Of a DNA stretch of 64,000 nucleotides, positions 6,169 to 59,385 are shown piece by piece. The translations under genes were made by a program, and so were the position numbers. The notes below the pieces were generated by a model that was given only the letters and a program-made list of their open reading frames with translations, ran no database searches and was not told the DNA's origin. The stretch's first letter is position 1; every line of letters begins with the position of its first letter. The stretch is from a bacterium (GTDB lineage: Bacteria > Patescibacteriota > Minisyncoccia > Moranbacterales > GWC2-37-73). The DNA lies in the NCBI GenBank assembly GCA_037140955.1, contig JBAXDL010000001.1:114319-178318 (forward strand), given 5' to 3'.

Positions 6169-6591
6169 GGAGATTAATAAACTTGAACTTTGACGGCGCT
6201 TCTGAATTCTCAGATCGCAATGGCTAGCCACCGTTATTGGGCTGCGGGGTGTGAAAGATCCTCGAAAACATAGACCAAGTTCATATATTGGCAAAGTTTA
6301 TGCCTCCATAATGAACCCAGTGGCAACGCATTTGCATAAGACTAATCAATATGTTGATTAGCAGCAGCGTTCTTTTAGTTGCCGAGTCTGTGTAATTCTT
6401 CAATCATTTAATATCTCGTCAATATTTTTTGATTGCGTAGTTTCTCCTGGCTATGTGAGGCCGAACGTTTTCGGTCAACAGGAAAAAAACAAAGGCAAGG
6501 AAAAATCCTTGTCTCTCTAATTGAAATAATTTCTTGAAAATTATTTCATAGGAGATAAAAGTTTTTCACAAACACTCAAAGGAGATGTGCC

Positions 6592-6877: not shown

Positions 6878-7045
6878 ATGAATATTTTTGTAATTTTAGT
6901 TATGTGTTGGGCTGCTTGGTTACTATTGGCGCTTATCGTCTTGGTGACACTATACATTTTCCAGATTATTTACTACCTAGCTCTTTTTGGAGCAGGGCTA
7001 GGAATGATAATCGAAAAAGCGACAAGAAAGGAGACTATAAAATGA
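6878..7045 (+). CDS. 55-aa hydrophobic two-helix membrane peptide (MNIFVILVMCWAAWLLLALIVLVTLYIFQIIYYLALFGAGLGMIIEKATRKETIK)
   Basis: ATG 7 nt after AAAGGAG; strongly hydrophobic; preferred over the overlapping TTG-start frame 6871-7053. Confidence 0.4.
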   Translation: MNIFVILVMCWAAWLLLALIVLVTLYIFQIIYYLALFGAGLGMIIEKATRKETIK

Positions 7046-7078
7046 GGCGTTAGTCTATCATGACTATCGCCTTTTTTC
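7046..7078 (+). terminator. rho-independent terminator
   Basis: AGGCG..CGCCT stem followed by TTTTTT. Confidence 0.4.
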
Positions 7079-7121
7079 TTTTCTGCATTTTTACATTATA
7101 CATTATACAAAATACATTATA

Positions 7122-8017: not shown

Positions 8018-8569
8018 CTAAAATTGTACTTTTACATTTTCTTTTTCTGCCTCATCCGCTGCGAAAAATTCGCGAGCTACAAATCCAAGCATTCCTGCAA
8101 GCAAATTGGTTGGAAAAACTTGAAGCTTGGTGTTGAAGTCTCGCACGTTGCCATTATAAAACCTGCGAGAGGCTTGAATTTTGTCTTCAGTGTCGGCAAG
8201 TTCACGTTGAAGTTCCAAAAAGTTTTGATTAGCTTTCAAGTCTGGATAATTCTCAGAGACTGCAAACAAGGATTTCAATGTTCCAGAAAGCATGTTCTCG
8301 GCTTCCTGTTTTTCGCCTGTTGTTCCTGCGCTCATTGCTGCAGTTCTGGCTTTGGTCACATTTTCCAGCAATTCTTTTTCATGAGTGGCATATCCCTTCA
8401 CAGTGCTAATCAAATTCGGAATCAAATCATAACGACGTTTCAATTGCACATCAATATCACTCCAGGCCTCATCAACACGATTTTTGAGTGTAATTAGTCC
8501 GTTGTACATTCCTACCAAAACAAGTCCCAAAACAACTACCACTGCGACAATGATTAATCCAATTGACAT
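8018..8569 (-). CDS. lemA: LemA family protein
   Basis: N-terminal TM then the LemA signature NRVDEAWSDIDVQLKRRYDLIPNL. Confidence 0.8.
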   Translation of the reverse strand: MSIGLIIVAVVVVLGLVLVGMYNGLITLKNRVDEAWSDIDVQLKRRYDLIPNLISTVKGYATHEKELLENVTKARTAAMSAGTTGEKQEAENMLSGTLKSLFAVSENYPDLKANQNFLELQRELADTEDKIQASRRFYNGNVRDFNTKLQVFPTNLLAGMLGFVAREFFAADEAEKENVKVQF

Positions 8570-12983: not shown

Positions 12984-13023
12984 ATTAGGAAATGAATACT
13001 TAAATTTTTATTGCTTGGAAAAA

Positions 13024-14172
13024 TTAGTCAGCAATGCAACGAAGCGACAATCCAAAATAGCGCCAAAGTGGACCAGCACCAATTTGATTATTATCAATAA
13101 TCGTCCAAAACATTTGATATTCATGACTAAATGGAGGACTAACCGTCCAAAAATAACCAACCTCACCCTTTCTCTCAATGCTCGCATAAGCATTTCCTCG
13201 ATAACCAGCGGATACAAATTTTAATTTTGAATTAAATGCTGGTACTATGCAGTTAGTGTTACAACCATACAGCCCAGCACTATTCAAAAGCTGCGCAAAT
13301 TCTTGCTGAGTTGGAACACGAAAGCCTGATGGACAAGGGTTATTACTACTTGTAAGATCCCAAAGACTATTGTCCTGTAATGTATCAGGAAGCCAATCAA
13401 ATTTACTAAATAGTGCTGGATTTCCATCTGCACCCAAAAAATATGTATTATACGGCGGCTGAACCTCATGATTAACTATGATTGCAAGATTATTCATCAC
13501 AGAGCTACTCAATGCCGGCGAAGGCTGCCCTCCCCAGGCTGTATATTGATGACCATCAGCTTTTCTGCCCCATTGAAAATACCAACCATAGCCAGCATCA
13601 TCAGTGGCTGAAGTTGGCAGGTCTTTTGCTCCCAAATTCCTATCCAACCAACATCTACCATCTTCAGCTAAAACTTTTCCGTAAGTAATTCCATCTTTAG
13701 AAACTGTTCCCGTGCAATCAACTCCAACCTTAACACTGACAGACCTGGCTGTTCCATTGTATGTTGCGACTGATTTAATAATTTTAACATCATTTCCCTT
13801 GCTGGTGTTGCAAATAATCGGAACCATTGCTGCTAGATCAGAATATAGATAAAGGTCATATCTTCCTGCTCCAGGAATTGATAAATTCTTAATCACACCA
13901 TTATCGCAGGTGCTAAAAACAGGAATAGTATTTATTACTGAAGTTAAATTACTGCCAGCATTAATAGTTTTGATTGCAAGTTGAGCTCCACTATCAGCTG
14001 TTTGCAAAGATTGTACCGAGGAGGATGTTGCACTGGCTGATTTTTTTTCTATTATTGTTGATGAGGAAATAGCCACTGCAATAGATAGCATCATGCCAAG
14101 GACAATGAGAGAATATGCTAGGATGGAACCTTGTTTTTTGTTGTTAAAAAAGGTTTTATTTTTTTTGAACAT
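13024..14172 (-). CDS. secreted/membrane-anchored protein with C-terminal Fib_succ_major-type domain (paralog B)
   Basis: N-terminus identical to paralog A; divergent C-terminus NPCPSGFRVPTQQEFAQL...SLRCIAD. Confidence 0.55.
   Translation of the reverse strand: MFKKNKTFFNNKKQGSILAYSLIVLGMMLSIAVAISSSTIIEKKSASATSSSVQSLQTADSGAQLAIKTINAGSNLTSVINTIPVFSTCDNGVIKNLSIPGAGRYDLYLYSDLAAMVPIICNTSKGNDVKIIKSVATYNGTARSVSVKVGVDCTGTVSKDGITYGKVLAEDGRCWLDRNLGAKDLPTSATDDAGYGWYFQWGRKADGHQYTAWGGQPSPALSSSVMNNLAIIVNHEVQPPYNTYFLGADGNPALFSKFDWLPDTLQDNSLWDLTSSNNPCPSGFRVPTQQEFAQLLNSAGLYGCNTNCIVPAFNSKLKFVSAGYRGNAYASIERKGEVGYFWTVSPPFSHEYQMFWTIIDNNQIGAGPLWRYFGLSLRCIAD
13517..14143. repeat. 627-bp perfect direct repeat, copy 2
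   Basis: identical to 12346-12972. Confidence 0.9.
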
Positions 14173-36998: not shown

Positions 36999-38048
36999 TT
37001 AATTGACCTCAATATCAATATGTCTGACTTCTGGAATTTCATCTTTAATTTTCTTTTCAACATCGTCTATTCTTGTACCGATCATACGCGGAACCCTGTC
37101 TGCATAGTCCACACAAAAGCGCAAAAATTCATCATAATCACCATCAATCTCCTCAAATTCCCTTTTGAGAGCATCTTTGCGATACATCTTTCTCATCAGT
37201 GCACTGCCATTTATCTCCACCTCGCACTTTATGTGATATTTTCCAATATCAATAACAACTGATTTAAAATCAATAACTTTTTCAATAGCAGGATCACCCT
37301 CCAAGATTTCAATCACTTTTTCTTCGATCTCCTCAGGAATTGATTTGCGCATCAAAAAACCACGATTGATGTTGATAAGGACAATTGCCATCGCCCCCAA
37401 AAGAACACCAATAACAATAGAACCCATAGCATCCCAAATAGGATTTCCAGTGTACCTAGATAGCAGAATGCTAAAAAAAGCCACGCTCACACCAAGCACT
37501 GCCACTGCATCTTCCAAAAGAACTGCGATCGTGGTGGGATCGCCATAAGAAAAAATGTCTTTCCATTTTCTTTTTTTGTTGTTTGCTCTAAGTTCGCGCA
37601 GTGCAATAAAAAAGGTTCCCAATTCAATCACAAAAGATGTAGCCAAAATGAAAAGCGCAATTGATCCAACATGCACATCTTCTTTGTGCAAAAGCCCAAC
37701 AACTCCATGATAAATCGTTATGCCCGCACCCAAAAAGAAAATACTACAAGCAGAAATAAGTGCCCAAAAAAATCTTTCATTGGAATATCCATAATGAAAA
37801 TCACCATCCGACGGTCTTTGTGATTTCTTGATTCCCACCATCAAGAGAATTTGATTGAAAACATCAGCCACGCTGTGCACAGCCTCAGAAAAAAGAGCTC
37901 CGCTGCCAGTAGAGAAAAAACCAAACCATTTTATGATCATAATAAAAACATTTCCAGCCAAAGCTGCAAAAACAGGCAAGAACCCATGAGAATTTTTTGT
38001 ATTCATGTTTGCATTATAGCAGCATTTGTCTGCATTGACAAAAAACAA
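36999..38048 (-). CDS. cation diffusion facilitator family transporter
   Basis: 6 TM; HSVADVFN motif; C-terminal cytoplasmic domain. Confidence 0.8.
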   Translation of the reverse strand: MFFVNADKCCYNANMNTKNSHGFLPVFAALAGNVFIMIIKWFGFFSTGSGALFSEAVHSVADVFNQILLMVGIKKSQRPSDGDFHYGYSNERFFWALISACSIFFLGAGITIYHGVVGLLHKEDVHVGSIALFILATSFVIELGTFFIALRELRANNKKRKWKDIFSYGDPTTIAVLLEDAVAVLGVSVAFFSILLSRYTGNPIWDAMGSIVIGVLLGAMAIVLININRGFLMRKSIPEEIEEKVIEILEGDPAIEKVIDFKSVVIDIGKYHIKCEVEINGSALMRKMYRKDALKREFEEIDGDYDEFLRFCVDYADRVPRMIGTRIDDVEKKIKDEIPEVRHIDIEVN

Positions 38049-38063
38049 AATATATTATATTCT
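38035..38063 (+). promoter_or_regulatory. promoter TTGACA-N17-TATTCT
   Basis: upstream of the 38105 ORF. Confidence 0.4.
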
Positions 38064-38104
38064 ATTTATTCAATATAAAAATACCATCCCAAAGGAGGAT
38101 TGTC

Positions 38105-38368
38105 ATGGAAGAAATGGCATGCTTGGCAAAAAGAATCTCATCACAAGAAGAGCTTAATGATGCTTATTGTATGTGCGTAGAGCTATTTAATATTTTTTTT
38201 AAAAAAAATACACAAAATAGCGATACAGAGAACACGAATTTATTTGAAGAAGCTTGCGACGCACTCAGAGCAGAATTAAAAAGAAATTATATTGAAAATG
38301 ATTTCAGCAACGTAGAACTGTGTAAACTTACACATGAAGTACTTAGAATACGATTGCAAAAATTATGA
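38105..38368 (+). CDS. small acidic hypothetical protein (87 aa)
   Basis: SD AAAGGAGG; terminator follows. Confidence 0.4.
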   Translation: MEEMACLAKRISSQEELNDAYCMCVELFNIFFKKNTQNSDTENTNLFEEACDALRAELKRNYIENDFSNVELCKLTHEVLRIRLQKL

Positions 38369-38382
38369 CCAAGACGCTTATA

Positions 38383-38414
38383 GGCTTTCGCGAATCTGCG
38401 AAAGCCTCTTTTTT
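38383..38414 (+). terminator. terminator GGCTTTCG-CGAATCTG-CGAAAGCC + T-run
   Basis: 8-bp stem. Confidence 0.55.
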
Positions 38415-38538
38415 ATATATTAAAAAAGCGGATCACAATAATATGTGTCCGCCTTGTTTTGAATCTTCGTTGACCTCCACGATGATTAGTAAAGGAGCGC
38501 TCTATTGAGGTTAAGCGCATGAAACCCTGGTCCAGATT

Positions 38539-38869
38539 TTAGAGTGGTTCAAAAACAACCTTTATCTCTTTAATCTGAAACCATCCGGCATGTGAAAATG
38601 TTACCTTCGTATTGTCAGCCGGATCGACAATGCGGTCATTCTTGCAAAAAATAACAGGTTTGCCCTTTGCGAGGTGCAAGAATTCCTGCTGCAAAGGAAG
38701 TGGCGCCACAATTGCGATAACATCGGCCACTTCGATGTCATCGAGGATTTCGGTAGCTCTGGTGATAGTCTTATTGATCTGACCAACCTCAACCTCTCCA
38801 AAAATCCGCTTCAAGTCAGACAACTGCTCAACAGACAACGGATGACGCGAAAACCAAAGAACTTTTTTC
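38539..38869 (-). CDS. hypothetical alpha/beta (flavodoxin-like?) small protein; likely start MKKVLWFSRHPLS
   Basis: SD AAGGAGG before the internal ATG at 38869; the listed ORF extends to 38955. Confidence 0.4.
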
Positions 38870-39071
38870 ATAACAAACCTCCTTGCTGCCTTTTTCACTG
38901 AGTGAAATAAGGACTTACAACAATAGCAACTTACGCTGCCTCGAGAACAGCGCAAATCACTCGAGATGTTTTTTGAAAAACTTTCACTCTGAATTTACAT
39001 TTTTGAAAAAAATATAAACTCGGAAAAAAGTGGGAATCGTCTTTATTAAGAGATTCCCAATTTATATCGCA

Positions 39072-39278
39072 CTATGTCCGTGGTGATTTTTCACCCAAGA
39101 TTAATACGATAAATCCTACTGATGCTGTAGCACACAAATACAATGCGACAACAGCAAACAAGAAACTATACTGCTTGAGAGCATAGACTTTCATCATTGC
39201 TACACCGAAAATACCAGTGCAGGAAATGAAAGCCACAACAAGCAATGCAAAGATCATTGCGTTTCTGTGTATGGTCAT
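39072..39278 (-). CDS. 68-aa two-helix membrane protein
   Basis: SD GGGAGGTGG before MTIHRN; hydrophobic. Confidence 0.4.
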   Translation of the reverse strand: MTIHRNAMIFALLVVAFISCTGIFGVAMMKVYALKQYSFLFAVVALYLCATASVGFIVLILGEKSPRT

Positions 39279-39392
39279 TTTGACCACCTCCCTTATTTTT
39301 AATTTTGTTTTTAAAAAAGGATTGACCGCCACCCCAAGGAAATTTCTTTTTGAGATTTCTCTCAGGCAAAAATTAAAAAGCCTAGTATGGAG

Positions 39393-39839
39393 CTATCTCG
39401 TTATTGACTTGAGAGCCGCGCTCCAATCCTTGCTACCATCATTGGTTAGACGTGCATGCAAATAAAAAACATTTGCGCCGTTTGCAATGAGTGGCTCACA
39501 TAGAAAGTCCATGATCGCACTTGCTGGATGGTCATGATGACCAGTGTCGGTCACAACTCCAACAAGTTTGACACCAGACATTGCCAGGAAAATTGAAAGT
39601 GGATATCCGACCATTATTTCTTGGCCGAAAAATTCCATTCCCCTTTCTCCGAGCGTCATCGATTCTGCCGGCATCAGCAGATCAATCAAGGCAACATCGA
39701 ACGAGTTGTCTTTCAGGATATGCCCACGAAAAACATCCGTATACCCACCAGTGATCACAACCTCGTGCCCAAGTGTTTCCAATTGCTTGCGAGCTGCCTC
39801 ACGATGCTTCTTTGAGTCATCCACGATCAGAATTTTCAT
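39393..39839 (-). CDS. receiver (REC)-like single-domain protein, atypical C-terminal half
   Basis: MKILIVDDS...FDVALIDLLMP matches the CheY-like acidic pocket and phospho-Asp position; remainder diverged. Confidence 0.45.
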   Translation of the reverse strand: MKILIVDDSKKHREAARKQLETLGHEVVITGGYTDVFRGHILKDNSFDVALIDLLMPAESMTLGERGMEFFGQEIMVGYPLSIFLAMSGVKLVGVVTDTGHHDHPASAIMDFLCEPLIANGANVFYLHARLTNDGSKDWSAALKSITR

Positions 39840-40176
39840 CTCTCATTCCTCCTTTTTCAATAAGATAAATATTAATTTCTTTGTCTTCTGGAGAAAAAGC
39901 AATCGCGTGACATTCATCAACGCGCCCAGGAAAACTCCTCGAAAGTGCTTTAGCAGCTAATTTTGCCTGACGTTCGCCAGGAAAAATAAGCATCGCCACA
40001 ATAACACCTTCTTCGTCCTTGAGCGCACTAAGTGCAAACTCAGGAGAATTTGTCATCACAATCTCAGCATCATCAGTGCTTTCAGTGAGCACATGCCCAT
40101 AAGCAACAATAATTAGCTTGATCGTTTTTTCCAGCACGTCTTTTTCTCCATATTTCATTTGAAGAAATATTTTCAT
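39817..40176 (-). CDS. hypothetical protein (119 aa), first gene of a two-gene operon with the REC-like protein
   Basis: SD GGAGGTG; overlaps the downstream gene by 23 nt. Confidence 0.45.
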   Translation of the reverse strand: MKIFLQMKYGEKDVLEKTIKLIIVAYGHVLTESTDDAEIVMTNSPEFALSALKDEEGVIVAMLIFPGERQAKLAAKALSRSFPGRVDECHAIAFSPEDKEINIYLIEKGGMRDENSDRG

Positions 40177-40207
40177 CTTACACCTCCGTTTTTTTTGATT
40201 TTTATTT

Positions 40208-40252
40208 CCCTCTCAAAACCAACTTTAAAAAAAATTAATTTTGAGAGAGAGG
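40208..40252. promoter_or_regulatory. 45-bp inverted-repeat leader element, copy 1 (CCCTCTCAAAACCAACTTT...TTTTGAGAGAGAGG)
   Basis: copies at 41436-41480 and 42616-42660; each is followed on the minus strand by an A-run, CGGAGGTG SD and an ATG. Confidence 0.55.
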
Positions 40253-40985
40253 CAAGAAATTTTTCTTACCCTTATATCAACAGTTCATTTGAACTGAAAA
40301 ATTCGCGGGCAGATGAGAGTGTGCAACTCTCTTTTGAACTTAGCATTCTCGATGGACATAGTGTCGATCAATAAGTGCGTGCGTTCTAAGTAGTCTGTCA
40401 TCTACTTATTATGAATTGGAGTCTTAAACCCCTTCCATCTTAAGATGAGGGCGCATCATAAGTAGCCCTGCATGATTGAAAAGCGCGCTAGTCAACCAGC
40501 CCGATGTGCACATTCACCAGGACTCGATACTAAAAATAAAATTACTCCGCCAATAAACAGCGACAAAGATTCCCTATTGAAATCACGCAATTTAACTTTT
40601 AGCTTTTAAAATTACAAGGATGTCTTTCACCCTTATCCCTTCCTGTTTAATTTCGCCACCAAGACGAAATTAGCAAACCAGGATTCCATCTCTCGGGATC
40701 AAGAACAAATTAAACACTATCTTAATTTTTTATTCACTTCACTCAAGCCTCACCACCCATTAATAGTTATGTTCGCAACAAGAGCGAAAATTCCGGGTCG
40801 CACGGAAATCATAAAAATCTTTAGATGTTAAGTTTCCATGAGCGTTCGCACAATTCCTTGTGCAAGGGGAGTGAATGTTCTCCCTTATCCCTTCCTATCC
40901 ATCCAAATATTTTTTAAAAAAGCACAATTGCTTTTAGAAAATTTATTTGGTTATAGGAAAAATCACCCGGGATCAGGACTCTGAC

Positions 40986-41413
40986 TTAGCCTAGCAATGC
41001 TTCGGCATTTTGCGGTAAGCGTCTTATTGGAACAACCCAAAAGCGCTCCCACCTTGTATCACTACCCTCAATATGTTTTTCAGCATTTTCTTTACTGATA
41101 AATGCATCATGAGCATACCAAGAACTTCCACCATAACTATCCCTTCCATTGTAATAGTAGCCATTCAAAAAAATAATGACATACATAATCTCGGGAATCA
41201 TTTGTCCATCAAAATCAAGCACAGCAACCGACTGACTAAATTGCCAACTAGGCCAATTTTTTTTGTCATCAGCGCTATCAGGATCTAGAAAACCACACAC
41301 GCTAATGCGTGGACAGTATTCCTTTTCCTTGTTCCAGTCGATTTGGTAATCGATCCGTCCATTGCGACTAAGTGACATAAAAACTGTTACCCTCTTCTTT
41401 GATTCTGCCATGG
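40986..41413 (-). CDS. hypothetical protein (142 aa from MAESKK)
   Basis: SD CCGGAGGTG before the ATG at 41413; the listed ORF extends upstream through the leader element. Confidence 0.45.
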
Positions 41414-41435
41414 TGACACCTCCGGTTTTTTGTTT

Positions 41436-41480
41436 CCCTCTCAAAACCAACTTTTTGAAAAAATTAATTTTGAGAGAGAG
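41436..41480. promoter_or_regulatory. 45-bp inverted-repeat leader element, copy 2
   Basis: near-identical to copy 1. Confidence 0.55.
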
Positions 41481-41673
41481 ACGCAGAAAGAGAAGTGTTG
41501 TCTCCCCTACGACATTTGTCACGTTTTGACGCGCTGGACTTACACAAGATTGTGTCGTTCGCGCAACTTGAGACTGACATCACATTGGTTATTCGTTTTC
41601 ACCAAGTGGCTCAAGATTATTCCAGGATTATTTTTCGTCGCCTTTGACCTGGGCGCGACTAGCCACGAATGTG

Positions 41674-41992
41674 CTATCGGCTCGCAGAAACTTTCAGTTT
41701 CAGTTTGAACTTATTCAGTTCAGACTTAACTTCCGGTTTTGCGAAATCCGACAGAAACACACGAAGAGACTGAATCTCAGCGTTCCGCTTTTCAGCTTCA
41801 CGCTTTGAACCATCGATTCCGAAAAATCGAAGTGTCTTTCCTTGTGTCCGCATTTCTCTTTCCAGAGATTTGCGGCATCCGCTGCATACAAGTGGTGCTG
41901 ACCAAAGCTTGGTCACCTTGTCTCTTTTCAGAGCCAATGTGAACTTTGGCAGTCCCTTGCAGCCTGGCAGGATGTTGCAGGAATCGGTCATG
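41674..41992 (-). CDS. hypothetical Cys-containing protein (106 aa from MTDSCN)
   Basis: SD AAAGGAGGTG before the ATG at 41992; CNILPGC...CSGC. Confidence 0.4.
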
Positions 41993-41995
41993 CTA

Positions 41996-42349
41996 TCACC
42001 TCCTTTCTTGGACCTGGTTAGGGTGAACTTCAACAGTCGATATGGGTTCGGAATCTTCTTCCTCATCCCACACGAACACGGACGTTATGAAATAATACTG
42101 TGGTTTTTCTTCGAAATTCAGTCCCACGCGTACTATCCATATCAGATCTTCAAATTCCTCGCATCCTTCACCAGCATAAAGCTCTGGTGTACTCAGAATG
42201 AAAAATGGTCCACTTATGCGACCAGCATCATCAAATACATAGACTTCCGATCCAAGTGGATACTTGTGCGTGAAGTCAACATATTGATTCTGCATTTCCA
42301 GGCTCAAAAGTTGAAACTGGTGATCTTCCATTGGAATCACATGATTCAT
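41996..42349 (-). CDS. hypothetical acidic protein (117 aa from MNHVIP)
   Basis: SD AAGGAGG before the ATG at 42349. Confidence 0.45.
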   Translation of the reverse strand: MNHVIPMEDHQFQLLSLEMQNQYVDFTHKYPLGSEVYVFDDAGRISGPFFILSTPELYAGEGCEEFEDLIWIVRVGLNFEEKPQYYFITSVFVWDEEEDSEPISTVEVHPNQVQERR

Positions 42350-42514
42350 GGCATCCTCCTTGGATGGTTTGAAATTTTTCTCATAGAAAATCATTACCCA
42401 ATGTAACAATCTTCATAAGAGAGGCGAAAGATTCTTCGCCAAGATTGATCAGTTCTGTTGACAGGTTGATCAAACCCCGCTTGCCACCTTTCGGCGCAGC
42501 AGATGAAGGAGTAG

Positions 42515-42589
42515 TTACTTTCCCTGCTTAGCTGCATTTGCAGCTTCGCGCGAAAAGTATACTACGCCATTAACGACGTAATAACTCAT
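42515..42589 (-). CDS. 24-aa peptide MSYYVVNGVVYFSREAANAAKQGK directly downstream of leader element copy 3
   Basis: SD CGGAGGTGA plus ATG in the same arrangement as the other two leader copies; very short, so uncertain. Confidence 0.25.
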   Translation of the reverse strand: MSYYVVNGVVYFSREAANAAKQGK

Positions 42590-42615
42590 GCGGTCACCTC
42601 CGTTTTTTATGAAAT

Positions 42616-42660
42616 CCCTCATATATACCAACTTTAAATCAAAACGAGCATATATGAGGG
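42616..42660. promoter_or_regulatory. 45-bp inverted-repeat leader element, copy 3 (CCCTCATATATACCAACTTTAAATC...ATATATGAGGG)
   Basis: arms differ from copies 1-2 but remain mutually complementary; ACCAACTTTAAA core conserved. Confidence 0.5.
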
Positions 42661-43212
42661 AAAAATTGTTAAAGTCCAGTCGTGAGTGAACAGCGAATCA
42701 AAAACCATAGAAGTGCACAAGGCACAACTTGGGAAAAAATAGTCAAAAAAAACCTTTGCTTATATACAGATCTTTTTTACTCAGATATGTGGCCAATATA
42801 TATATGTGCCAATATGGTAATGAAATCTGAAAGCGCTCCAAGATGCCGACTGTGCTTTGTTTCTCCATATTCTGTGATATTCTCCTTCAAAGCTGCGCAC
42901 ATCTCAGTACTCTTAACTACCTATCTTTTTGAGGAACTCGCTGTCCGCTTTTCTTAGCATGACTCCGTAGTATAGCGCATGATAAACGTTTTGTCAAGTG
43001 TCTTTGACAAAATAAAGTAAATTACTTTATTTCAGCTCTAATTAAAGCCTTTTAATCTTAACATTTTGATATATTTTACTAACATATTTCAGCAGAAAAG
43101 ACTCATAATTTTGTGAAAAAATAGTGTTTAAGCTATAAAACAGTTTTAATTTGAATATAAGCCAATAAAAAGGCACTCCTTATATAGCAATGAAAAAATA
43201 AGTTTATATCTA

Positions 43213-43241
43213 TTGACAAATTTCCCACAATCTGCTAGACT
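43213..43241 (+). promoter_or_regulatory. promoter TTGACA-N17-TAGACT
   Basis: canonical spacing; no long ORF downstream. Confidence 0.4.
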
Positions 43242-43249
43242 GTTTTGTA

Positions 43250-43527
43250 ACGTTAGTTATTTGAAAAAAGTATTTTGGGTTTTGAAGTTAACCCCTAACC
43301 GCCAGTACGGACCCACGAAAGGGGGTGAGATCATGGACGATTAACTTTCCTCATTAAAAGCAATTTATTTGTGAGAGGAAAAAATCGTTCAATGAGAAGT
43401 ACAAGAAAAAATAAAAAGGAGGAAAGGATCATGAATGACTAGACTAGTGAAGATTATTATTGTATTTGCAAGGCTCGAACTCAACGACACATAATGTGAG
43501 TCGTGCCAAAAAATTTCTACTCAGACA
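43250..43527 (+). ncRNA. candidate small RNA / leader transcript containing minimal ORFs with strong SD
   Basis: between the promoter and terminator; AAAAGGAGGAAAGGATCATGAATGACTAG (MND-stop) and AGGGGGTGAGATCATGGACGATTAA (MDD-stop). Confidence 0.3.
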
Positions 43528-43567
43528 AAAGCCCCGAACGAAATCGTTCGGGGCTCATTTTTTTATA
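43528..43567. terminator. bidirectional terminator GCCCCGAACG-AAAT-CGTTCGGGGC with A/T tails
   Basis: 10-bp GC-rich stem. Confidence 0.6.
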
Positions 43568-43577
43568 AAAGCATATT

Positions 43578-44324
43578 TTATTGATATTTTTCAGCGCCCT
43601 CCCATGCAAGCTTCATTATTGCCTGAAGTGAGTTTGCAATTTCAACATCCTCAATGACAATTCCAGCTAACCTGTCCTTCAGAGAAGCAATTCTCAATTT
43701 ATTATCATAAATAGCTATATCTATACTGATTGGAAATTTATCAAATGGAACCTTTCTTCTTTCTCCATCTGGCGTATTTTCAAGTTTTCCATTTTTATAA
43801 GTATATATTACCTGCGTTGTTATCTTATTATTAATCCTTCTTGCGCGTGCTCTTTCGCGATCCCTTGGAGTAAAAACCGAATTTACTTCATCAACTGAAT
43901 AAGCCATGTAAACTTTTCCTTTTGCACTTTTTGTAAACTCCTCAACTGTTGCTAAAATTCCCTCTTTTCCCTCATAATATTTCACAACAGGCTTATCAGC
44001 GTTTTTATTGTTCAAGCTTTGCAATTGTGGCAACAATTTTTTCAAATTTTCCTTCTTTTTTTCAATACTTTCTTTTTCTTGTTCCAAAATTTCCAGCAAA
44101 CGCTCCGGATCAGCAGCAATGAAATATTGCTTTTTGCCTTTATAAAAACTTGAAACCAAACCTCTTTGCATCAAAGCATCAATAATAAAATATGCTGTGG
44201 CCCGATTCACCGCTGCTTTTTGCGCAACCTGTTGAACAGTTGATTGTCCCAATTCAAGTGTGGCCAAATATATTTTGGCCTCTTTTTCATTGATTCCAAT
44301 ATTAATAAGCTCTTGTTCTAGCAT
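43578..44324 (-). CDS. TrmB-family HTH transcriptional regulator (paralog 4)
   Basis: IGINEKEAKIYLATLELG...AVNRATAYFIIDALMQRGLV. Confidence 0.6.
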   Translation of the reverse strand: MLEQELINIGINEKEAKIYLATLELGQSTVQQVAQKAAVNRATAYFIIDALMQRGLVSSFYKGKKQYFIAADPERLLEILEQEKESIEKKKENLKKLLPQLQSLNNKNADKPVVKYYEGKEGILATVEEFTKSAKGKVYMAYSVDEVNSVFTPRDRERARARRINNKITTQVIYTYKNGKLENTPDGERRKVPFDKFPISIDIAIYDNKLRIASLKDRLAGIVIEDVEIANSLQAIMKLAWEGAEKYQ

Positions 44325-54519: not shown

Positions 54520-55668
54520 TTAGTTTTTAATTGGCATGATGATGTAGGTATAATTCAAAAGTTCCTCCCTTTTCTCTCCTTGCACCATGCGCAAAACAGC
54601 TGGTGAAGAACCTGAGTTCATCAACAAGACCAAATGTTGTGTTGAAATTGCAGTAAGACCATCAGCCATATAGCGAGGATTGAAAAGCGCCTCTTGAGAT
54701 GGACCTTCAATATCTGCGCTTAAAATAGTTTTGTTTTCACCAACCTCTTCAGCCTTGGATTGAACAAAAACTTCCTTGGTTTCACCACTAACAATAAATT
54801 TAACCTCGCCAGATTTGCTATGTGTAAAAATTCCAGCAATTTTAACCGCACGCAAAACATCATCCTTGGAAAGAAAGACCTTAGTAGTAAATTCCTGAGG
54901 AATTATTTGTTGATATGGTGGATATTTACCATTAATCAAGCGTGAAACAATTCTAACATTATCAATTTGGAAAAAGATTTGACTTTCCTCGATGCCAATT
55001 TTAATTTCTTGTGTTTCTGGATTTATGACACGAAAAACTTCTGAAATTGTGTTTAGTGGTACAATCACAGATTGTGTTTTTTCAACAAACAAGTCATAGG
55101 CCTGCGAATTGTCTCTTATAAGAGTCACAACAGCCTCTGCCAAACGAAAACTGTCAGTTGCTGCCAAGCGCACTTCTAATTTGTTTAGCACAAAGTTAAG
55201 ACCTGTAAGTTCTGGTCTGGTGCTATCAAGAGAAACACAAATTGCCAAGCGCGGAATTGCCTCTTTCATTTCCTGAGCTGGCAAAGAAAACAAGAACTCG
55301 CCTTCCATTTCGGGAATAATTGGAAAATCAGTTGCTTGCAATCCATTTATTTGAGCCTTTGATGATCCGCTTTCAATATAAAGTGTTTGCCCAATGACAC
55401 TAAGCGAAACAGTTCCAACATTAGGCAAATTGTTCACAAAATTACTAAGCAAACGAGCAGGAACAGTTATTCTTCCTTCTTCTTCTATCTTGGCTCCTAT
55501 TTTCAAAAAAACTCCAATTTCAAGATTTGTTGCTGAGATTTTCAGCATTCCATTGTCTGTTTCAAGTAAAATATTTTCCAAAATTGGCAAAGTTATTTGT
55601 TTTCCAACAACTCTTTCGGTGCTATAAATAGCCTTTTTAAAGTTTTCCTGTGTACATGTTAATTTCAT
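54520..55668 (-). CDS. dnaN: DNA polymerase III beta sliding clamp
   Basis: 382 aa; three-domain clamp; N-terminus MKLTCTQENFKKAI. Confidence 0.9.
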   Translation of the reverse strand: MKLTCTQENFKKAIYSTERVVGKQITLPILENILLETDNGMLKISATNLEIGVFLKIGAKIEEEGRITVPARLLSNFVNNLPNVGTVSLSVIGQTLYIESGSSKAQINGLQATDFPIIPEMEGEFLFSLPAQEMKEAIPRLAICVSLDSTRPELTGLNFVLNKLEVRLAATDSFRLAEAVVTLIRDNSQAYDLFVEKTQSVIVPLNTISEVFRVINPETQEIKIGIEESQIFFQIDNVRIVSRLINGKYPPYQQIIPQEFTTKVFLSKDDVLRAVKIAGIFTHSKSGEVKFIVSGETKEVFVQSKAEEVGENKTILSADIEGPSQEALFNPRYMADGLTAISTQHLVLLMNSGSSPAVLRMVQGEKREELLNYTYIIMPIKN

Positions 55669-55734
55669 AAATATAATTGGCTAAAGGTTTTCTTAGTTAA
55701 GGTTTGACAACATCCTTGTCCCGATTAAACATTC

Positions 55735-57156
55735 TTACACTGCATAGATGCGTTCTCGCAAAATTGCAACATCTTCTCTGACTTTTTCATCTGTCTCTAT
55801 TTCCCTATTAATTTTCTCATATGCATGCAGTGCTGTTGTGTGGTCCCTGCCACCAAATTGAGTGCCAATGCTTGGATAAGAAACGTTGAGCTCGCTGCGC
55901 ATCAAATACATTGCAATATGACGCGCATAGGCTATTTCCTTTTTTCGTCCTTTTTCAATTAATTCTTTAGTAGAAATATTAAAATATTGCGAAATAGCTT
56001 CAATCACATTTTGTGGCTGCACTCCCTTCTTTTTTCCACTTGAAATTATCTCAGAAAGCGCTCCTTGAACAAATTTCAGCGTTGGCAATTTTTTGTTAAA
56101 CTCGCAGGCAGCTATGATGCGATTCAAAGCGCCTTCCAATTCGCGAATATTATTTTTTACATTCTCAGCAATAAATCTGATCGCCTCCTCGTCCATGTAG
56201 AAATTATTTTCCACTGACTTTGTTTTCAAAATTGCAATTCTTGTTTCTATGTCAGGCTTTCCAATATCTGCAATCATGCCGCCTTCAAAGCGCGATCTCA
56301 AGCGATCCTCCAGGGTTGCAATTGCTTTTGGAGGGCGATCTGAGCTTATTACTATCTGCTTATTGATTTGATATAGGGCATTAAAAATATGAAAAAATTC
56401 ATTTTGTGTTTTTTCTTTTCCTGCCAAAAACTGAACATCATCAATAATCAACAAGTCTATAGCCTGATATGCTGATTTAAAGTCATTTACCGTCTGATTT
56501 CGGATAGAATCAATAAGCTCATTAGCAAAACGCTCAGAGGTGATGTATTTAATCCTTCTGGTTGGGTCATTTGCTAGCACCTCATTGCCAATTGACTGCA
56601 GCAAATGGGTTTTTCCAAGGCCAACACCACCATAAATAAAAAGTGGATTATATATTTTTCCTAGATTCTGAGAAACGGCATAGCAAGCAGCTCTAGCCAG
56701 CTCATTGTTTTCGCCAATAATAAAATTTTCAAAAGTATATCGTGCATTGATATTATTTTCAAAAGCAGCACTTGCATGCTGTGGGCTAACATTGTGCTGA
56801 ACTTGCTGCACTGAGTTATTTGCCCCCTGATATGCTTGCGGTGAGGATTGATTTTCCTGATTAAAATTAGGCTGATTAACCTTTTTAATCTCATTTAAAG
56901 GCGCTTGTTCATTACTATAAATAACACAACTAATTTCCTTGATATCATCCTGCGAATTCCTGAGTGCCTTAAAAATATACGTATTATATTTGTTTTCTAG
57001 CCACTCCTTAGCAAATCCATTTGGCACACCAATAACAACCTTGCCACCCTCGTTGGAAAGAATTTTTGTATTTTTAAACCAGGTGCTAAAATTTGCCTTT
57101 GAAATAGAAAGCTCTATTTCTCCCAGCGCAGCCTGCCAAAGTTCCGCATTATTCAT
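55735..57156 (-). CDS. dnaA: chromosomal replication initiator DnaA
   Basis: AAA+ Walker A GGVGLGKTHLL; C-terminal DNA-binding domain. Confidence 0.95.
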   Translation of the reverse strand: MNNAELWQAALGEIELSISKANFSTWFKNTKILSNEGGKVVIGVPNGFAKEWLENKYNTYIFKALRNSQDDIKEISCVIYSNEQAPLNEIKKVNQPNFNQENQSSPQAYQGANNSVQQVQHNVSPQHASAAFENNINARYTFENFIIGENNELARAACYAVSQNLGKIYNPLFIYGGVGLGKTHLLQSIGNEVLANDPTRRIKYITSERFANELIDSIRNQTVNDFKSAYQAIDLLIIDDVQFLAGKEKTQNEFFHIFNALYQINKQIVISSDRPPKAIATLEDRLRSRFEGGMIADIGKPDIETRIAILKTKSVENNFYMDEEAIRFIAENVKNNIRELEGALNRIIAACEFNKKLPTLKFVQGALSEIISSGKKKGVQPQNVIEAISQYFNISTKELIEKGRKKEIAYARHIAMYLMRSELNVSYPSIGTQFGGRDHTTALHAYEKINREIETDEKVREDVAILRERIYAV

Positions 57157-57571
57157 ATGACTTAGCCTGTTAATAGTGCAAAAAAATTATATCATGTCTT
57201 CCCTTCTTCTACTAATTGTTACTAATAACAACTGTTGATAACATGTGGATAAGTGCATAAGTATCTTTTTTAGCTTTTATAAGCCATAATTTGTATTTTT
57301 TTGAAGGAAAAGAAGCTTGCTTACCGCACTTAAACTTAGAATATCCTCTCTTATCCCCTCTTGTCAATCATTTTTAATGAATTTTTAAAAAATTGACCGC
57401 TATTGCGCCTTTTTTCAGTTAGATGCGGGTTGACTTTTCTGCACGTGCTGCTACACTTATCTATAGTATTACCTAATGTCCTACCTATTTTAAATAAATA
57501 AGTTTTTTTATTTAAACGGCGATCGAAGGAAAATGCCTATTTCATATTAATAATTTAATCAAAAACATATT
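57157..57571. promoter_or_regulatory. oriC region with DnaA boxes
   Basis: consensus TGTGGATAA at 57244-57252; variants TTATCCCCT at 57351-57359, TTATCTATA at 57458-57466 and TTGATAACA at 57231-57239; AT-rich; lies between dnaA and rpmH. Confidence 0.6.
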
Positions 57572-57706
57572 ATGAAACGTACATATCAACCAAAAAAAGG
57601 ACGTCGAAAAAGCCGTCATGGATTCCTTGAGCGCATGAGCACAAAAAATGGTATCGCTGTTATCAAAAGACGCAGACAAAATGGTCGCAAAAAACTTTCA
57701 GTTTAA
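57572..57706 (+). CDS. rpmH: 50S ribosomal protein L34
   Basis: [18 protein letters not shown]... Confidence 0.85.
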
Positions 57707-57730
57707 AAACATCACGAGAAAAATGCCAGC

Positions 57731-58072
57731 ATGCTTTCAAAAAAATACAGACTAACAAGACGCGAGGACTTTTCAAAAGTATTTTCCAAGGGTGCATATG
57801 CCAGGCAAGATGAACTTTCCATTAAGTATGCGAAAAATTCATTACCATTAACCAGAATTGGATTTCCGATTGGGAAAAATTATTCAAAGAAGGCGGTGGT
57901 CAGAAACAGAACACGAAGAGTACTGCAAGCTGCTTTTGATGAAATTACCAGCAAAATAACACCAGGTTTTGATATCGTCGTCATAATAAGCCCAGGCTAT
58001 CAAAAAATAGAACTTAAAAAAATCTCCGGTCAGTTACAGAAAATTTTGTATAAAGCTAATTTATTCATGTAA
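57731..58072 (+). CDS. rnpA: RNase P protein component
   Basis: 113 aa; RnpA basic motif; position after rpmH. Confidence 0.85.
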   Translation: MLSKKYRLTRREDFSKVFSKGAYARQDELSIKYAKNSLPLTRIGFPIGKNYSKKAVVRNRTRRVLQAAFDEITSKITPGFDIVVIISPGYQKIELKKISGQLQKILYKANLFM

Positions 58073-58110
58073 CATTTCCTTGATAATTAAGGAAATAATA
58101 AAAAAACAAA

Positions 58111-58845
58111 ATGCTAGCTCTCTTTCACACAATCATATATCAACCATTATATAACATACTTATTCTTCTTTATAACATTGTTCCCGGGAAGGATTTCGGT
58201 ATTTCAATTATCCTAATCACCATCCTCCTTCGAACAATTTTAATCCCGCTTTACAAAAAGCAAATCGAATCGCAGAAAAAACTTCAAGCATTGCAACCCA
58301 AAATAAAAGAGTTGCAAGAAAAAACAAAAGGAGACAAGGAAAAACAAACCAAGCAATTAATGGAACTTTACAAGGAACACAAGACGAATCCATTTTCTGG
58401 TTGCTTGCCACTGATTGTGCAATTAATATTTTTAATTGCTATTTATCGCGTTCTGATAAACATTTCCGACTCTGGTTTAATTGCTGATCAGGCACAGCTA
58501 TATTCCTTTGTTTCCGATCCTGGAAAAATAAATCAATTTTTTCTTTTTATTGTTGATTTAACAAAGCCAAGCATTGTCATAGCTGCTCTTGCCGCTATTG
58601 CTCAATATTTTCAAACAAAAATGCTTATGGCTAGTCAGCCAGCACCAACAAAAGAAACTGAATCAGACAAGCCTGATATGGCACAAATAATGAGCAAACA
58701 AATGCTATACCTTGGACCATTTTTAACGTTTTTCATTGGTGTAAAATTTCCAGCAGGATTATCCCTTTACTGGCTGGCTGGAACATTATTCATGTTAGTG
58801 CAACAAATTTCAATTGAAAAAAAATCAGGGGTCGCAAAGCAATAA
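58111..58845 (+). CDS. yidC: membrane protein insertase YidC (short form)
   Basis: conserved PLY..Q...K...LQP.IKELQEK and GCLP motifs. Confidence 0.85.
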   Translation: MLALFHTIIYQPLYNILILLYNIVPGKDFGISIILITILLRTILIPLYKKQIESQKKLQALQPKIKELQEKTKGDKEKQTKQLMELYKEHKTNPFSGCLPLIVQLIFLIAIYRVLINISDSGLIADQAQLYSFVSDPGKINQFFLFIVDLTKPSIVIAALAAIAQYFQTKMLMASQPAPTKETESDKPDMAQIMSKQMLYLGPFLTFFIGVKFPAGLSLYWLAGTLFMLVQQISIEKKSGVAKQ

Positions 58846-58908
58846 AAAAATAATCATTTTCAATAAGAACTTTCTGGGCAAATTGCCTTTAAATTTCTAT
58901 CATAGAAT

Positions 58909-59385
58909 ATGGATAAGAAAACAACAGACATCATAAAGCAAACGATAGAAGAACTGATAACCAAAATGGGCTTCGATGGTCAAGTTACCATTTCTGCTTC
59001 AGTAGATGGTGACGATAGCATTAATTGTGATATTACAACAAGCACTGATTCTAATTTTTTGATTGGACAACGCGGAATCAATCTGCAAGCACTGCAACAT
59101 CTTTCAAGATTAATTGTCAGAAAACATGTACCAGAAAAAATTCGCTTCACTTTGGACATAAACAACTACAGACAACAAAAAAATCAATCAATAGTTGAGC
59201 AAGCGCATAGTGCTGCAGATGAAGCAATCACTCAAAATTGCAGTATTTTCATGCAACCAATGTCAACATATGAGCGGAGAATAGTGCACTTAGAGCTTTC
59301 TGGCAATGAAAAAGTAACAACTGACAGTGTTGGAGAGGGAGAATCAAGAAAAATAGTTATTAAGCCCATAGGACTTGTTGAATAG
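58909..59385 (+). CDS. Jag/KhpB-type KH + R3H RNA-binding protein
   Basis: position after yidC; C-terminal R3H region YERRIVH. Confidence 0.7.
   Translation: MDKKTTDIIKQTIEELITKMGFDGQVTISASVDGDDSINCDITTSTDSNFLIGQRGINLQALQHLSRLIVRKHVPEKIRFTLDINNYRQQKNQSIVEQAHSAADEAITQNCSIFMQPMSTYERRIVHLELSGNEKVTTDSVGEGESRKIVIKPIGLVE

Follow-up and report, generated by a model that had tools for sequence, protein, structure and literature searches.

A mosaic small-gene island punctuated by tandem hairpins in a Moranbacteria-like bacterium may be a promoter-led, shuffling cassette array

The 64-kb stretch of DNA analyzed here (the window) comes from an uncultured CPR (Moranbacteria-like) bacterium and carries, on the minus strand, a chromosomal, hypervariable array of small genes. 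The first of these is H24 (42515..42589), a putatively coding 24-aa ORF that follows GGAGGTG and has no homolog among the related islands. It is followed in the ORF list by G117 (41996..42349), a 117-aa ORF for which profile searches found no known family and which is a singleton among the islands compared, and by F105 (41674..41991), whose 105-aa sequence shows CxxxxC...CxxC and a basic C terminus and is 96% identical in L004 and 75% identical in L014 (such labels denote related genomes throughout). E141 (40986..41411), a listed 141-aa ORF of no known family, has a 43% identical homolog at another array position in L014. Farther along lie D119 (119 aa, 39817..40176), C148 (39393..39839), the 68-aa two-TM protein B68 (39072..39278), and A110 (38539..38871), a member of an uncharacterized family of ~110-aa domains with 287 cluster representatives at E ≤ 1e−3. 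The A110 domain is elsewhere fused to LRR, HEAT, and DarA_C domains, and A110 itself is 92 to 95% identical in L004 and L006. The original prediction gave 119, 24, and 117 aa correctly; the lengths of 142 and 106 aa are corrected here to 141 and 105 aa.

Searches of Pfam, PHROGs, PADLOC, and NCBIfam recognized none of the island products except C148, and the earlier description of them as unrecognizable therefore stands for all but this protein, which is a stand-alone receiver (REC) domain. Its AF2 model (pLDDT 84.6) has receiver domains as 50 of its top 50 PDB matches, while its score against Pfam Response_reg (24.8 bits) falls below the 30.2 cutoff. Invariant residues comprise DD, D53, T97, and K137 together with a conserved His cluster (H101/H102/H104). 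D119 is its partner, always found directly upstream of the C148 homolog in six genomes. Of the structure predictions proposed at the outset, the D119 model was unusable (pLDDT 53). Between D119 and E141 lies a conserved, ORF-free stretch of ~715 nt (40271..40985, minus strand; longest ORF ≤38 aa), a candidate large ncRNA or decayed cassette. It is 86% identical to L011, compared to 72% for the B68 DNA of the same two genomes, its indels are not multiples of 3, and its MFE z score is −4.3.

Three inverted repeats of 44 to 45 nt (HP2) precede an SD and an ATG on the minus strand, as predicted: w1 (40207..40250) before the start at 40176, w2 (41435..41479) before that at 41411, and w3 (42616..42660) before that at 42589. 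The first and third starts were placed correctly; the second has its leader and ATG, at 41411 and not 41413. On the 3′ side of each copy come an A-rich spacer, CGGAGGTG, and the ATG. The w3 copy (CCCTCATATATGC..GGTATATATGAGGG; −25.1 kcal/mol, z −4.0) defines type A, in which both arms have changed with complementarity kept, as had been noticed. Type A is retained in L004 and L006, where a U-to-C change turns G·U into G-C, and L014 carries a diverged A′ form. The other two copies are of type B: w2 forms a 21-pair fold with a covariance model (CM) score of 74.5 bits in sense versus 42.3 in antisense, and w1 forms 20 pairs including four G·U (77.8 versus 35.1 bits; dG −22.2 versus −8.6). The ACCAACTTT core, described as fixed, is so in the three leaders but not universally: L006c, L014b, and L014e have altered versions, and the L014 A′ copy and types C, D, and E lack it.

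As whole elements, these leaders are not chance occurrences. The 9-mer AAAGTTGGT occurs exactly three times in the 64 kb, each time inside a leader, a count that is weak evidence by itself because 1.05 occurrences are expected and three were reached in 9 of 100 shuffles. The sense RNA folds of the three HP2 copies have energies of −25 to −26 kcal/mol (z −3.9 to −5.6), and 0 of 200 shuffles were as stable. With the covariance model, the scores of w1 and w2 correspond to E values of ~1e−18, compared to 16.8 bits for the best other sense-strand match in the window. The leader elements were also found again in related genomes; they are gene associated and conserved and do not behave as a generic repeat scattered across the genome.

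As the second of two halves, the 45-nt inverted repeat belongs to a tandem module consisting of HP1, HP2, an A-rich single strand, and the SD. HP1 is GC-richer and has 8 to 13 bp; HP2 has 18 to 21 bp and is AU-rich with G·U pairs. In the window, HP1 directly adjoins HP2 at w1, w2, C, and E; the related genomes L004, L006, L011, L014, L018, L021, and L022 add more than 25 such junctions. The island has at least five junction modules, two of which contain HP2 of other sequence types (C and E) that had been overlooked. At the H24/G117 junction, an HP1 (GGCGAAGAATCTTTCGCC, 42423..42440) that was flagged as terminator-like folds as the first of two adjoining hairpins. The second is HP2-C (42379..42422), an 18-pair hairpin with four G·U before G117 (z −4.3 for the HP1+HP2 fold); it matches 49 nt of L006 (6968-7016) at 100% identity, with further copies at L006 6642-6700, in L011, and in L014. 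The HP1 found after F105 by a tandem-hairpin scan (CGTAGGGGAGAC..CTCTTTCTGCG, 41482..41511) recurs after F105 in L004 and L014. Upstream of A110 lie an HP1 revealed by the scan (GGGAATC..GATTCCC, then ACTTTTTT; 39032..39058) and HP2-E (38980..39031; 19 WC and four G·U pairs, dG −15.1 in sense versus −8.7 in antisense), of which L006 has three copies and L004 one, with compensatory differences. An extra 16-pair hairpin between HP2-E and the A110 SD (38925..38961) is kept in L006. All of these elements lie on the minus strand.

The island is compositionally distinct and mosaic. As predicted, it is GC-richer than its surroundings: the GC content of 38500-42700 is 0.413, compared to 0.366 for the window; no 4.2-kb sliding window reaches a higher value (sd 0.0165), those not overlapping it stay at or below 0.390, and its GC3 is 0.405, compared to 0.313 in backbone genes. 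The slot between TrmB and CDF/TsaE/DHH holds different gene content in every relative, and 23 of the ~55 island ORFs compared are singletons, G117 and H24 occurring only in this genome. Island ORFs do have conserved counterparts in relatives, but D119 and C148 are the sole widely recurring pair, found also in places that lack these leaders, and the remaining genes are not conserved as a set; the idea of a self-contained, coregulated system is not borne out. Whereas the backbone is ~73% identical to L004, the F105 segment (42033-41427) reaches 95%, a jump consistent with horizontal exchange and with the suggestion that the island was horizontally acquired. This block stops just past HP2 and the A-run. 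At the end of the ORF-free stretch, folding and the scan place an HP1 (GGTAAGAAAAATTTCTTGCC, 40251..40270, minus strand) that also ends the homologous L011 stretch, and HP1 stays with the upstream unit while the HP2 type switches from B in the window to C in L011. The G117/F105 breakpoint is a plain gene boundary with no hairpin.

HP2 looks like a sense-strand RNA structure of 18 to 21 pairs with G·U wobbles, judging from its folds and its variation. In 17 of 18 instances, and for eight of nine sequence types, folding is more stable in sense than in antisense (by −6.8 kcal/mol on average; Wilcoxon P = 5e−5), and G·U pairs number 48 in sense folds versus nine in antisense folds. CM scores range from 66 to 80 bits in sense versus 29 to 42 in antisense, so that the covariance model check suggested earlier favors an RNA hairpin. 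Hairpins of at least 19 pairs with small loops occur on the island sense strand only, with essentially none elsewhere in 58 kb. The stems covary across about nine sequence types from eight related genomes. In the B/D-type alignment, 98.5% of positions are paired, compared to 63 to 67% in slid registers, with five double changes that come mainly from the single sequence L014d (0 of 500 shuffles). All 10 B/D copies retain one particular U·G pair, and G-to-A and U-to-C substitutions turn G·U into A-U or G-C. Types A, B, C, D, E, F, and G share an architecture with unrelated stem sequences, a cross-type comparison that presumes position-by-position comparability. The strand asymmetry would be no different for a hairpin formed by single-stranded DNA of the sense strand.

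The array runs in this order: an invariant sigma-70 promoter, a structured leader RNA, co-oriented small ORFs with modules between them, and a canonical terminator. The promoter, TTGACA-N17-TATACT (42969..42997; −35 at 42997-42992, −10 at 42974-42969), matches at 11 of 12 positions, is the top minus-strand site within 38000-43600, and is the sole canonical promoter, heading the whole array. Its hexamers and spacing are invariant in L004, L006, and L014, and the distant L018 and L022 show the same TTGACA-N17-TATACTAC..AGTC. From there to the first hairpin runs a leader RNA of ~290 nt (42678..42964, minus strand), for which RNAalifold on four genomes gave 53 pairs, 96.7% paired, 13 of them with compensatory double changes; 0 of 500 shuffles were as good, slid registers were 29 to 42% paired, and no Rfam match was found at E ≤ 5. 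The closing element is a canonical hairpin with a T-run (38421..38453, minus strand), within a 46-nt block that shows 88 to 91% conservation where the islands of L004 (7001-7047) and L006 (10513-10554) end. A scan found no sigma-70-like site (≥9/12) overlapping any module, although it may miss promoters because those of CPR bacteria are poorly characterized. With at least five modules and a single invariant head promoter, the proposed division into three transcription units is not supported. At junctions C and E, a fair T-tract comes after HP1, which could be an efficient terminator; the genes beyond would then need promoters, and none was detected.

We hold it somewhat probable that the locus is a hairpin-punctuated, promoter-led, shuffling array of small-gene cassettes and not a coherent three-unit system. 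From the head promoter, the array would be read mostly into a single RNA. HP1 may act as a leaky attenuator and as a protective 3′-end hairpin of the upstream cistron, and HP2, of a size suited to RNase III, may serve as a signal for processing, as a 5′ stabilizer, or both. HP2 would also insulate each cistron and keep its SD and A-rich tract free of pairing, so that translation is efficient whatever the context. The repeated modules could supply DNA homology for swapping, gaining, and losing cassettes, and such exchange would yield a mosaic between relatives.

In polycistronic mRNAs of phage T7, Dunn and Studier (1983) reportedly described intercistronic hairpins processed by RNase III. Cutting at these sites caps the upstream RNA with a protective hairpin and frees the translation-initiation region downstream, and the sites have characteristic internal loops. 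Here, too, stem-loops of ~20 bp occupy intercistronic positions of a putative long transcript, with cleavage likewise putative; unlike the T7 sites, the element is chromosomal, belongs to a CPR bacterium, and is a two-hairpin unit. No RNase III gene lies within the window. Phage "morons" are said, by Hendrix and coworkers, to be small autonomous gene units in prophages with their own promoter and terminator. The array is similar in placing small gene units of deviant GC content between conserved genes with regulatory hairpins at their borders, but searches found neither phage genes nor phage DNA similarity.

Among the alternatives, it is unlikely, but least so, that the modules are DNA operators or portable promoters whose arms bind a dimeric repressor, such as the adjoining TrmB-family regulator, with all units coregulated at initiation. 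There is precedent in Neisseria REP2 and Borrelia IR-A/IR-B, two-stem-loop intergenic repeats that lie directly upstream of many unrelated ORFs and include the RBS, REP2 also carrying its own promoter and ATG in 23 to 26 copies scattered through the genome, with the downstream genes coregulated (Delihas 2011, PMC3184786). The array modules likewise place two stem-loops and an RBS before unrelated ORFs. Unlike REP2, they lack a detectable promoter, cluster in cassette arrays behind one promoter, have many covarying stem types, and show no sequence relationship, in a different phylum. If the HP1 hairpins are terminators, a promoter would be needed downstream of them; in the conserved core, xAAAGT retains the A2 and T6 of a −10 hexamer, and in type C a possible promoter, TTGCCT-N16-TACATT, extends across HP1 and the loop of HP2. 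Against this, no site of ≥9/12 overlaps a module, type B has no −35 at a suitable distance, and the w2 SD is too close for a downstream −10. Nor are the arms true DNA palindromes, as three to five positions per hairpin pair only as G·U on one strand, and at least seven unrelated arm sequences would require equally many cognate repressors. A TrmB-family gene does flank the island in the window, L004, L006, L014, L019, and L022, but this adjacency is weak evidence because TrmB paralogs are numerous in these genomes (four in 20 kb).

It is quite unlikely that the hairpins are attC-like single-strand DNA substrates of a site-specific recombinase, making the array an integrase-less cassette cluster (CALIN-like). 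The layout does resemble that of an integron, without any integron machinery: behind one promoter, co-oriented, promoter-less small ORFs of unassigned function alternate with structured imperfect palindromes conserved more in structure than in sequence. Repeats are highly similar within one array, close relatives differ in gene content with homology breakpoints at modules, and strand-specific folding also fits a single-stranded DNA substrate. Core sites are missing, however, with no R″/R′ pair (RYYYAAC...GTTRRRY) in any of four islands or in any module on either strand. No tyrosine recombinase or integron integrase occurs in the 64 kb, the lone recombinase being of the serine type and 37 kb away beside tRNA-Ser. 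Unlike attC, the stems are near perfect, with wobble pairs favoring the mRNA-sense strand and no layout of bulged bases and unpaired spacers, and certain breakpoints fall at hairpin-free gene boundaries, such as G117/F105.

Least probable is a selfish miniature repeat (MITE-, REP-, or BIME-like) spread through the intergenic spaces with no dedicated function, its hairpin being terminal inverted repeats: modules are present or absent at orthologous junctions (none between C148 and B68 here; HP1+HP2-B upstream of the L011 B68 homolog, 61% identical in aa), and a 72-nt module is 94% identical between different contexts, but the orientation is strictly single, an SD and start codon always follow at a distance of 11 to 45 nt, changes that compensate or that preserve wobbles maintain the pairing across types and genomes, the window has no transposase/RAYT gene, and 596 Gb of species-representative genomes, as well as viral contigs, gave only chance matches to coding sequences. 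REP/BIME and MITEs (Correia, ERIC) are palindromic intergenic repeats that behave alike, being cotranscribed, influencing mRNA stability, and serving as recombination hot spots (PMC3184786). REPs are GC-rich, measure ~35 nt, and number in the hundreds across a genome, whereas the array hairpins are 40 to 45 nt, AU-rich, and local; MITEs have terminal inverted repeats, target duplications, and either orientation, whereas the array hairpins are single-orientation and SD proximal.

The modules are limited to two small-gene islands in the 64 kb. A sixth tandem HP1+HP2 module, supported by its fold and a CM score of 16.8 bits, lies outside the array on the plus strand (6494..6555), upstream of an 80-aa ORF (6592-6834), and an HP2 resembling its own is present in L021.

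To our knowledge, gene regulation and gene acquisition are almost wholly unexplored in the CPR/Patescibacteria, whose genomes are tiny. The locus described here has a reproducible architecture, in which an invariant promoter and a structured leader RNA are followed by hairpin-punctuated small-gene cassettes and a terminator, and it occupies a fixed chromosomal slot where content turns over faster than the backbone. Two candidate new structured RNAs emerge from it, as does a divergent receiver subfamily with a conserved His cluster; the leader RNA and a conserved ORF-free stretch are the most promising leads.

The island (38500-42700) comprises eight minus-strand ORFs, named by a letter and their length in amino acids (in transcription order H24, G117, F105, E141, D119, C148, B68, and A110), and five junction modules. 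Three of these modules had been claimed as leaders, and all are present as 44-45-nt inverted repeats on the minus strand, followed by an A-rich tract, CGGAGGTG, and an ATG. The predicted unit starts at 40176 and 42589 were borne out, as were the products of 119 aa and of 24 and 117 aa; the receiver-like protein has 148 aa, the second start codon lies at 41411 rather than 41413, the second unit encodes 141 rather than 142 aa, and the last protein has 105 rather than 106. Within the 64 kb, AAAGTTGGT occurs at the three leader sites only, a bare 9-mer count without significance, since 9 of 100 shuffles reach three. The full leader elements are significant: their RNA folds at -25 to -26 kcal/mol (z -3.9 to -5.6), and their covariance-model scores are 74-78 bits, versus 16.8 for the next sense-strand match elsewhere in the window. 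Folding with more upstream sequence revealed that another hairpin (HP1), GC-richer and variable in sequence, lies directly 5' of each of these repeats (HP2), with a gap of 0-1 nt. Two such tandem modules on the minus strand had been overlooked: one of type C (42440-42379) before G117, which separates H24 from G117-F105, and one of type E (39058-38980) before A110. A sixth, on the plus strand (6494-6555), belongs to a second small-gene island, which adjoins a further TrmB gene.

Across eight genomes, more than 30 junction modules, each HP1 and HP2 leading to GGAGG, carry at least seven unrelated HP2 stem sequences (types A to G) in the same architecture. The modules are linked to genes and are of several types with one architecture, so the module is neither a generic repeat scattered without gene association nor tied to one gene set. 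The core ACCAACTTT, originally described as fixed, is common to types A and B; it is altered in three single copies from related genomes (L006c, L014b, and L014e) and absent from types C, D, and E and from A', a diverged A form in L014. A metagenome scan with the leader pattern recovered one genuine relative, L011; two further hits were chance matches in coding sequence (L009 and L012) and two were unconvincing (L010 and L013). The same scan of viral contigs gave only chance matches within coding sequence (L003), and so did that of species-representative genomes (L008, in an exonuclease gene of Polynucleobacter).

Four lines of evidence favor HP2 as a structure on the gene-sense RNA. Each HP2 stem contains one to five G.U pairs, which become A.C mismatches on the opposite strand; the folds hold 48 G.U pairs in sense versus 9 in antisense. 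The sense fold is the more stable in 17 of 18 instances (mean -6.8 kcal/mol, p 5e-5), and covariance-model scores are 66-80 bits in sense versus 29-42 in antisense. The alignment of types B and D is 98.5% paired with five double changes, a value equaled by none of 500 shuffles and compared with 63-67% in slid registers, and single G-to-A or U-to-C changes turn G.U into A-U or G-C with pairing kept. Small-loop hairpins of at least 19 pairs occur in the islands, on their sense strand, and are essentially missing from the remaining 58 kb. HP2 was rejected as a rho-independent terminator, as A-runs rather than U-runs lie 3' of it. As to HP1, an intrinsic terminator has a GC-rich stem running straight into a U-tract; the HP1 stems are present, and the terminator scan was passed by the HP1 at 42440-42423 only; ACTTTTTT lies 3' of the junction-E HP1 and TCTCTCTC 3' of the B-junction HP1, the latter differing from the canonical terminators of this genome. 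In Rfam searches of the window, tRNA-Ser alone passes its gathering score, and at E<=5 nothing in 38000-43600 comes near one. A tmRNA was likewise rejected: ARAGORN finds none, and the alpha_tmRNA match (23.4 bits, E 5e-4) falls short of its gathering score of 50. This weak match spans 42444-42588 on the minus strand, that is, the H24 ORF and sequence 3' of it, and was treated as noise.

These strand properties also bear on whether the leaders could be operator or promoter modules on DNA. The nearest upstream repeats of this kind are Neisseria REP2 and the Borrelia IR (PMC3184786). Like REP2, HP1 plus HP2 places two stem-loops and a ribosome-binding site directly upstream of diverse ORFs. REP2 carries a promoter inside the repeat, whereas none was detected in the modules here: no sigma-70-like site overlaps any of them within 38000-43600 (the scan used the consensus sigma-70, from which CPR-specific promoters may differ), manual inspection of the type B modules gave no -35/-10 pair at workable spacing, and a sigma-54 or sigma-70 promoter in the TTGGTA/TTGGCA core was rejected for want of a consistent second element. 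The operator reading is weakened by this, by arms whose only pairing on one strand is G.U, and by the many unrelated arm types. A selfish MITE- or REP-like repeat is weakened as well; MITE and REP-BIME elements are typified by many copies spread over the genome in both orientations, with a cognate transposase or RAYT. The modules are strictly in sense orientation and SD-proximal, their pairing is maintained, and within the 64 kb their copies are confined to the two small-gene islands, always in gene sense; no transposase or RAYT was found in the window.

One strong promoter, TTGACA-N17-TATACT (42997-42969, minus strand), heads the island; it is invariant in the related loci L004, L006, and L014 and also heads the islands of the more distant L018 and L022. 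No internal promoter of at least 10/12 was found in the island. Directly 3' of the head promoter is a structured leader RNA of ~290 nt (42964-42678, minus strand) without an Rfam match. Across four genomes its 53 pairs are 96.7% paired with 13 compensatory pairs, a level that none of 500 shuffles equals and that falls to 29-42% in slid registers. This RNA could be an sRNA in its own right or a leader with a regulatory role, such as antitermination. The array ends in a hairpin and T-run that are kept in L004 and L006.

From this layout we infer how the parts would work. The head promoter would drive a single transcript, in which HP1 would serve as a leaky attenuator and 3' protector, while HP2 would act as a processing signal, 5' stabilizer, and insulator, with the A-tract and SD kept unpaired; the repeated modules would supply homology for cassette exchange. 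The length of HP2 (18-21 bp) suits RNase III, making it a candidate processing signal: its 18-21 pairs and 3-6-nt loops match the intercistronic, near-perfect dsRNA of about two turns that characterizes RNase III sites. No rnc gene lies in the 64-kb window. If the modules act as proposed, they would constitute a compact natural way to express arbitrary incoming genes from one promoter and would mark the accessory-gene sites of these episymbionts.

Gene content was compared across syntenic loci obtained by exact-protein look-ups, from four related genomes (L004, L006, L014/15/16, and L011) and from more distant ones (L018/19, L021, and L022/23). The flanks are constant, with TrmB (43578-44324 in the window) on one side and CDF/TsaE/DHH/T2SSE on the other, and the small-ORF set between them differs in every genome; of the roughly 55 island ORFs in the comparison, 23 are singletons. 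The self-contained system originally envisaged is not supported. Six of the eight ORFs do recur in relatives (C148 and D119 in six genomes, A110 and F105 in three, B68 and E141 in two), while G117 and H24 recur in none. Backbone DNA is 70-76% identical, whereas the F105 segment is 95% identical to L004, in a block that ends just 3' of HP2 and its A-run. HP1 travels with the upstream unit: that of F105 is the same in three genomes, and the HP1 that closes the ORF-free stretch leads into HP2-B in the window and into HP2-C in L011. This stretch of ~715 nt (40271-40985, minus strand; longest ORF at most 38 aa) is 86% identical to L011, versus 72% for coding DNA of the same genomes. Indel lengths in it do not keep to multiples of three, and it folds with an MFE z-score of -4.3. 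Two 19-nt direct repeats, AGGAAGGGATAAGGG(A/T)GAA, lie within it at 40896-40878 and 40644-40626, a spacing of 252 nt; the stretch may be a large ncRNA or a decayed cassette. The predicted GC enrichment is real: 38500-42700 is the GC maximum (0.413 versus 0.366 for the window, with other non-overlapping 4.2-kb windows at most 0.390), and GC3 is 0.405 versus 0.313 in backbone genes. The whole island had no BLAST match in phage and plasmid collections.

Such cassette behavior would fit hairpins that are attC-like recombination sites, and the locus shares with integrons and CALIN its co-oriented, mostly promoter-less cassettes divided by structured repeats. An integron requires an integron integrase, a tyrosine recombinase, which is by definition absent in CALIN. 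The attC-like reading fails on both the defining sites and the integrase. There are no pairs of the R''/R' core sites (RYYYAAC / GTTRRRY) that mark the hairpin base of attC on either strand in the islands of the window, L004, L006, and L014, and none in the three original leaders or type C; among ORFs of at least 130 aa in the 64 kb there is no Phage_integrase-type match, and the sole recombinase is a serine recombinase (403-1767). Our literature search turned up nothing relevant on attC or hairpin elements in Patescibacteria/CPR. Also among the nearest kinds are integron cassette arrays, T7-type intercistronic RNase III hairpins, REP/BIME elements, MITEs, and phage morons. In its workings the locus resembles a mixture of known kinds and has the defining features of none. 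An anti-phage defense system and a prophage were dismissed, PADLOC giving no match apart from a weak REC and PHROGs only weak matches to families of unknown function. The most far-reaching reading of this cassette array, which we consider rather unlikely as a whole, is a CPR/Patescibacteria-specific, integrase-independent cassette platform, in which the conserved promoter and the new ~290-nt leader RNA would carry transcription through a series of terminator-like hairpins, perhaps through processive antitermination. In this reading, the tandem hairpins would be both RNA punctuation and crossover points for cassette shuffling between genomes, and one of the cassettes, the ORF-free stretch, would be another new large structured RNA.

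The original view that no product is recognizable is true for all ORFs except C148. C148 (39393-39839, minus strand), predicted as receiver-like, is a bona fide, divergent receiver domain: the top 50 PDB matches to its AF2 model (pLDDT 84.6) are all receiver domains, at target-normalized TM-scores of at most 0.73, and D7, D8, D53, T97, and K137, corresponding to the acidic pair, phospho-acceptor Asp, Thr/Ser, and Lys of the CheY-like (beta/alpha)5 fold, are invariant in 18 homologs. It falls below the Pfam PF00072 cutoff (24.8 versus 30.2 bits), the match covering residues 3-58 only. It represents a divergent subfamily with an insertion and an invariant TDTxHHxHP motif (T97-D98-x-x-H101-H102-x-H104-P105, plus K137-x-W139; alignment A5), a His cluster that hints at metal binding or at some non-canonical activity. 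Upstream, C148 is constantly partnered by D119, also in genomes without these leaders; the D119 structure model was unusable (pLDDT 53). A110 (38539-38871, minus strand) belongs to an unannotated domain family of ~110 aa with 287 cluster representatives at E<=1e-3 (proteins P0044-P0193). Elsewhere this domain is sometimes duplicated or fused to BspA-type LRR, HEAT, or DarA_C (anti-restriction), and A110 has weak matches to PHROG families of unknown function. None of the remaining island ORFs belongs to a family of Pfam, PHROGs, PADLOC, or NCBIfam, and a concatenated 684-aa query of seven island proteins gave no matches in protein search. A 67-aa piece of C148 is also shared by proteins from L018 and L022 (232 and 256 aa).

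The contig with the D/REC island in L018 also has LemA and Peptidase_M48 genes. These distant relatives carry another short motif just 5' of start codons, GCAACCGC(T/A)CCTCGGG..(N)..GGGG, a small hairpin that overlaps the SD region and is independent of HP1 and HP2 (L018 ~180-230 and ~1495-1540; L022 ~1310-1346 and ~3190-3226). The second small-gene island of the window (5900-7100, plus strand) contains ORFs of 72, 80, and 55 aa and its own module; it is flanked by the TrmB gene (4946-5707, minus strand) and by an HExxH protease-like ORF (7122-8015) with an adjoining ORF (8018-8569), and the two 1-kb windows over 6001-8000 have GC of 0.39 and 0.41.

A 51.6-kb ENA metagenome contig and a Logan contig are 100% identical to the window, its proteins are deposited as MEI7890490-96 (NCBI MAG), and a Candidatus Moranbacteria MAG is among the close relatives. 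Gene content is typical of CPR/Patescibacteria (many TrmB paralogs, T2SSE, DHH, TsaE). The segment is chromosomal and near the replication origin (DnaA 55735-57156, DnaN, YidC, Jag); dnaN, dnaA, yidC, and a jag-like gene (54520-59385) place the origin near 57-58 kb and hence the variable island ~15 kb from oriC/dnaA. At the other end, the large serine recombinase (Resolvase and Recombinase domains, plus strand) is followed by a perfect 23-bp palindrome (1782-1830) and, beyond it, tRNA-Ser(GGA) (1934-2019, minus strand); the stretch 403-2019 may be the edge of an integrated element. Finally, adjacent minus-strand ORFs of 390 and 382 aa (11811-14172), both without a Pfam family, are identical to each other over more than 110 nt (near 12440 and 13611), which marks them as recent tandem paralogs.
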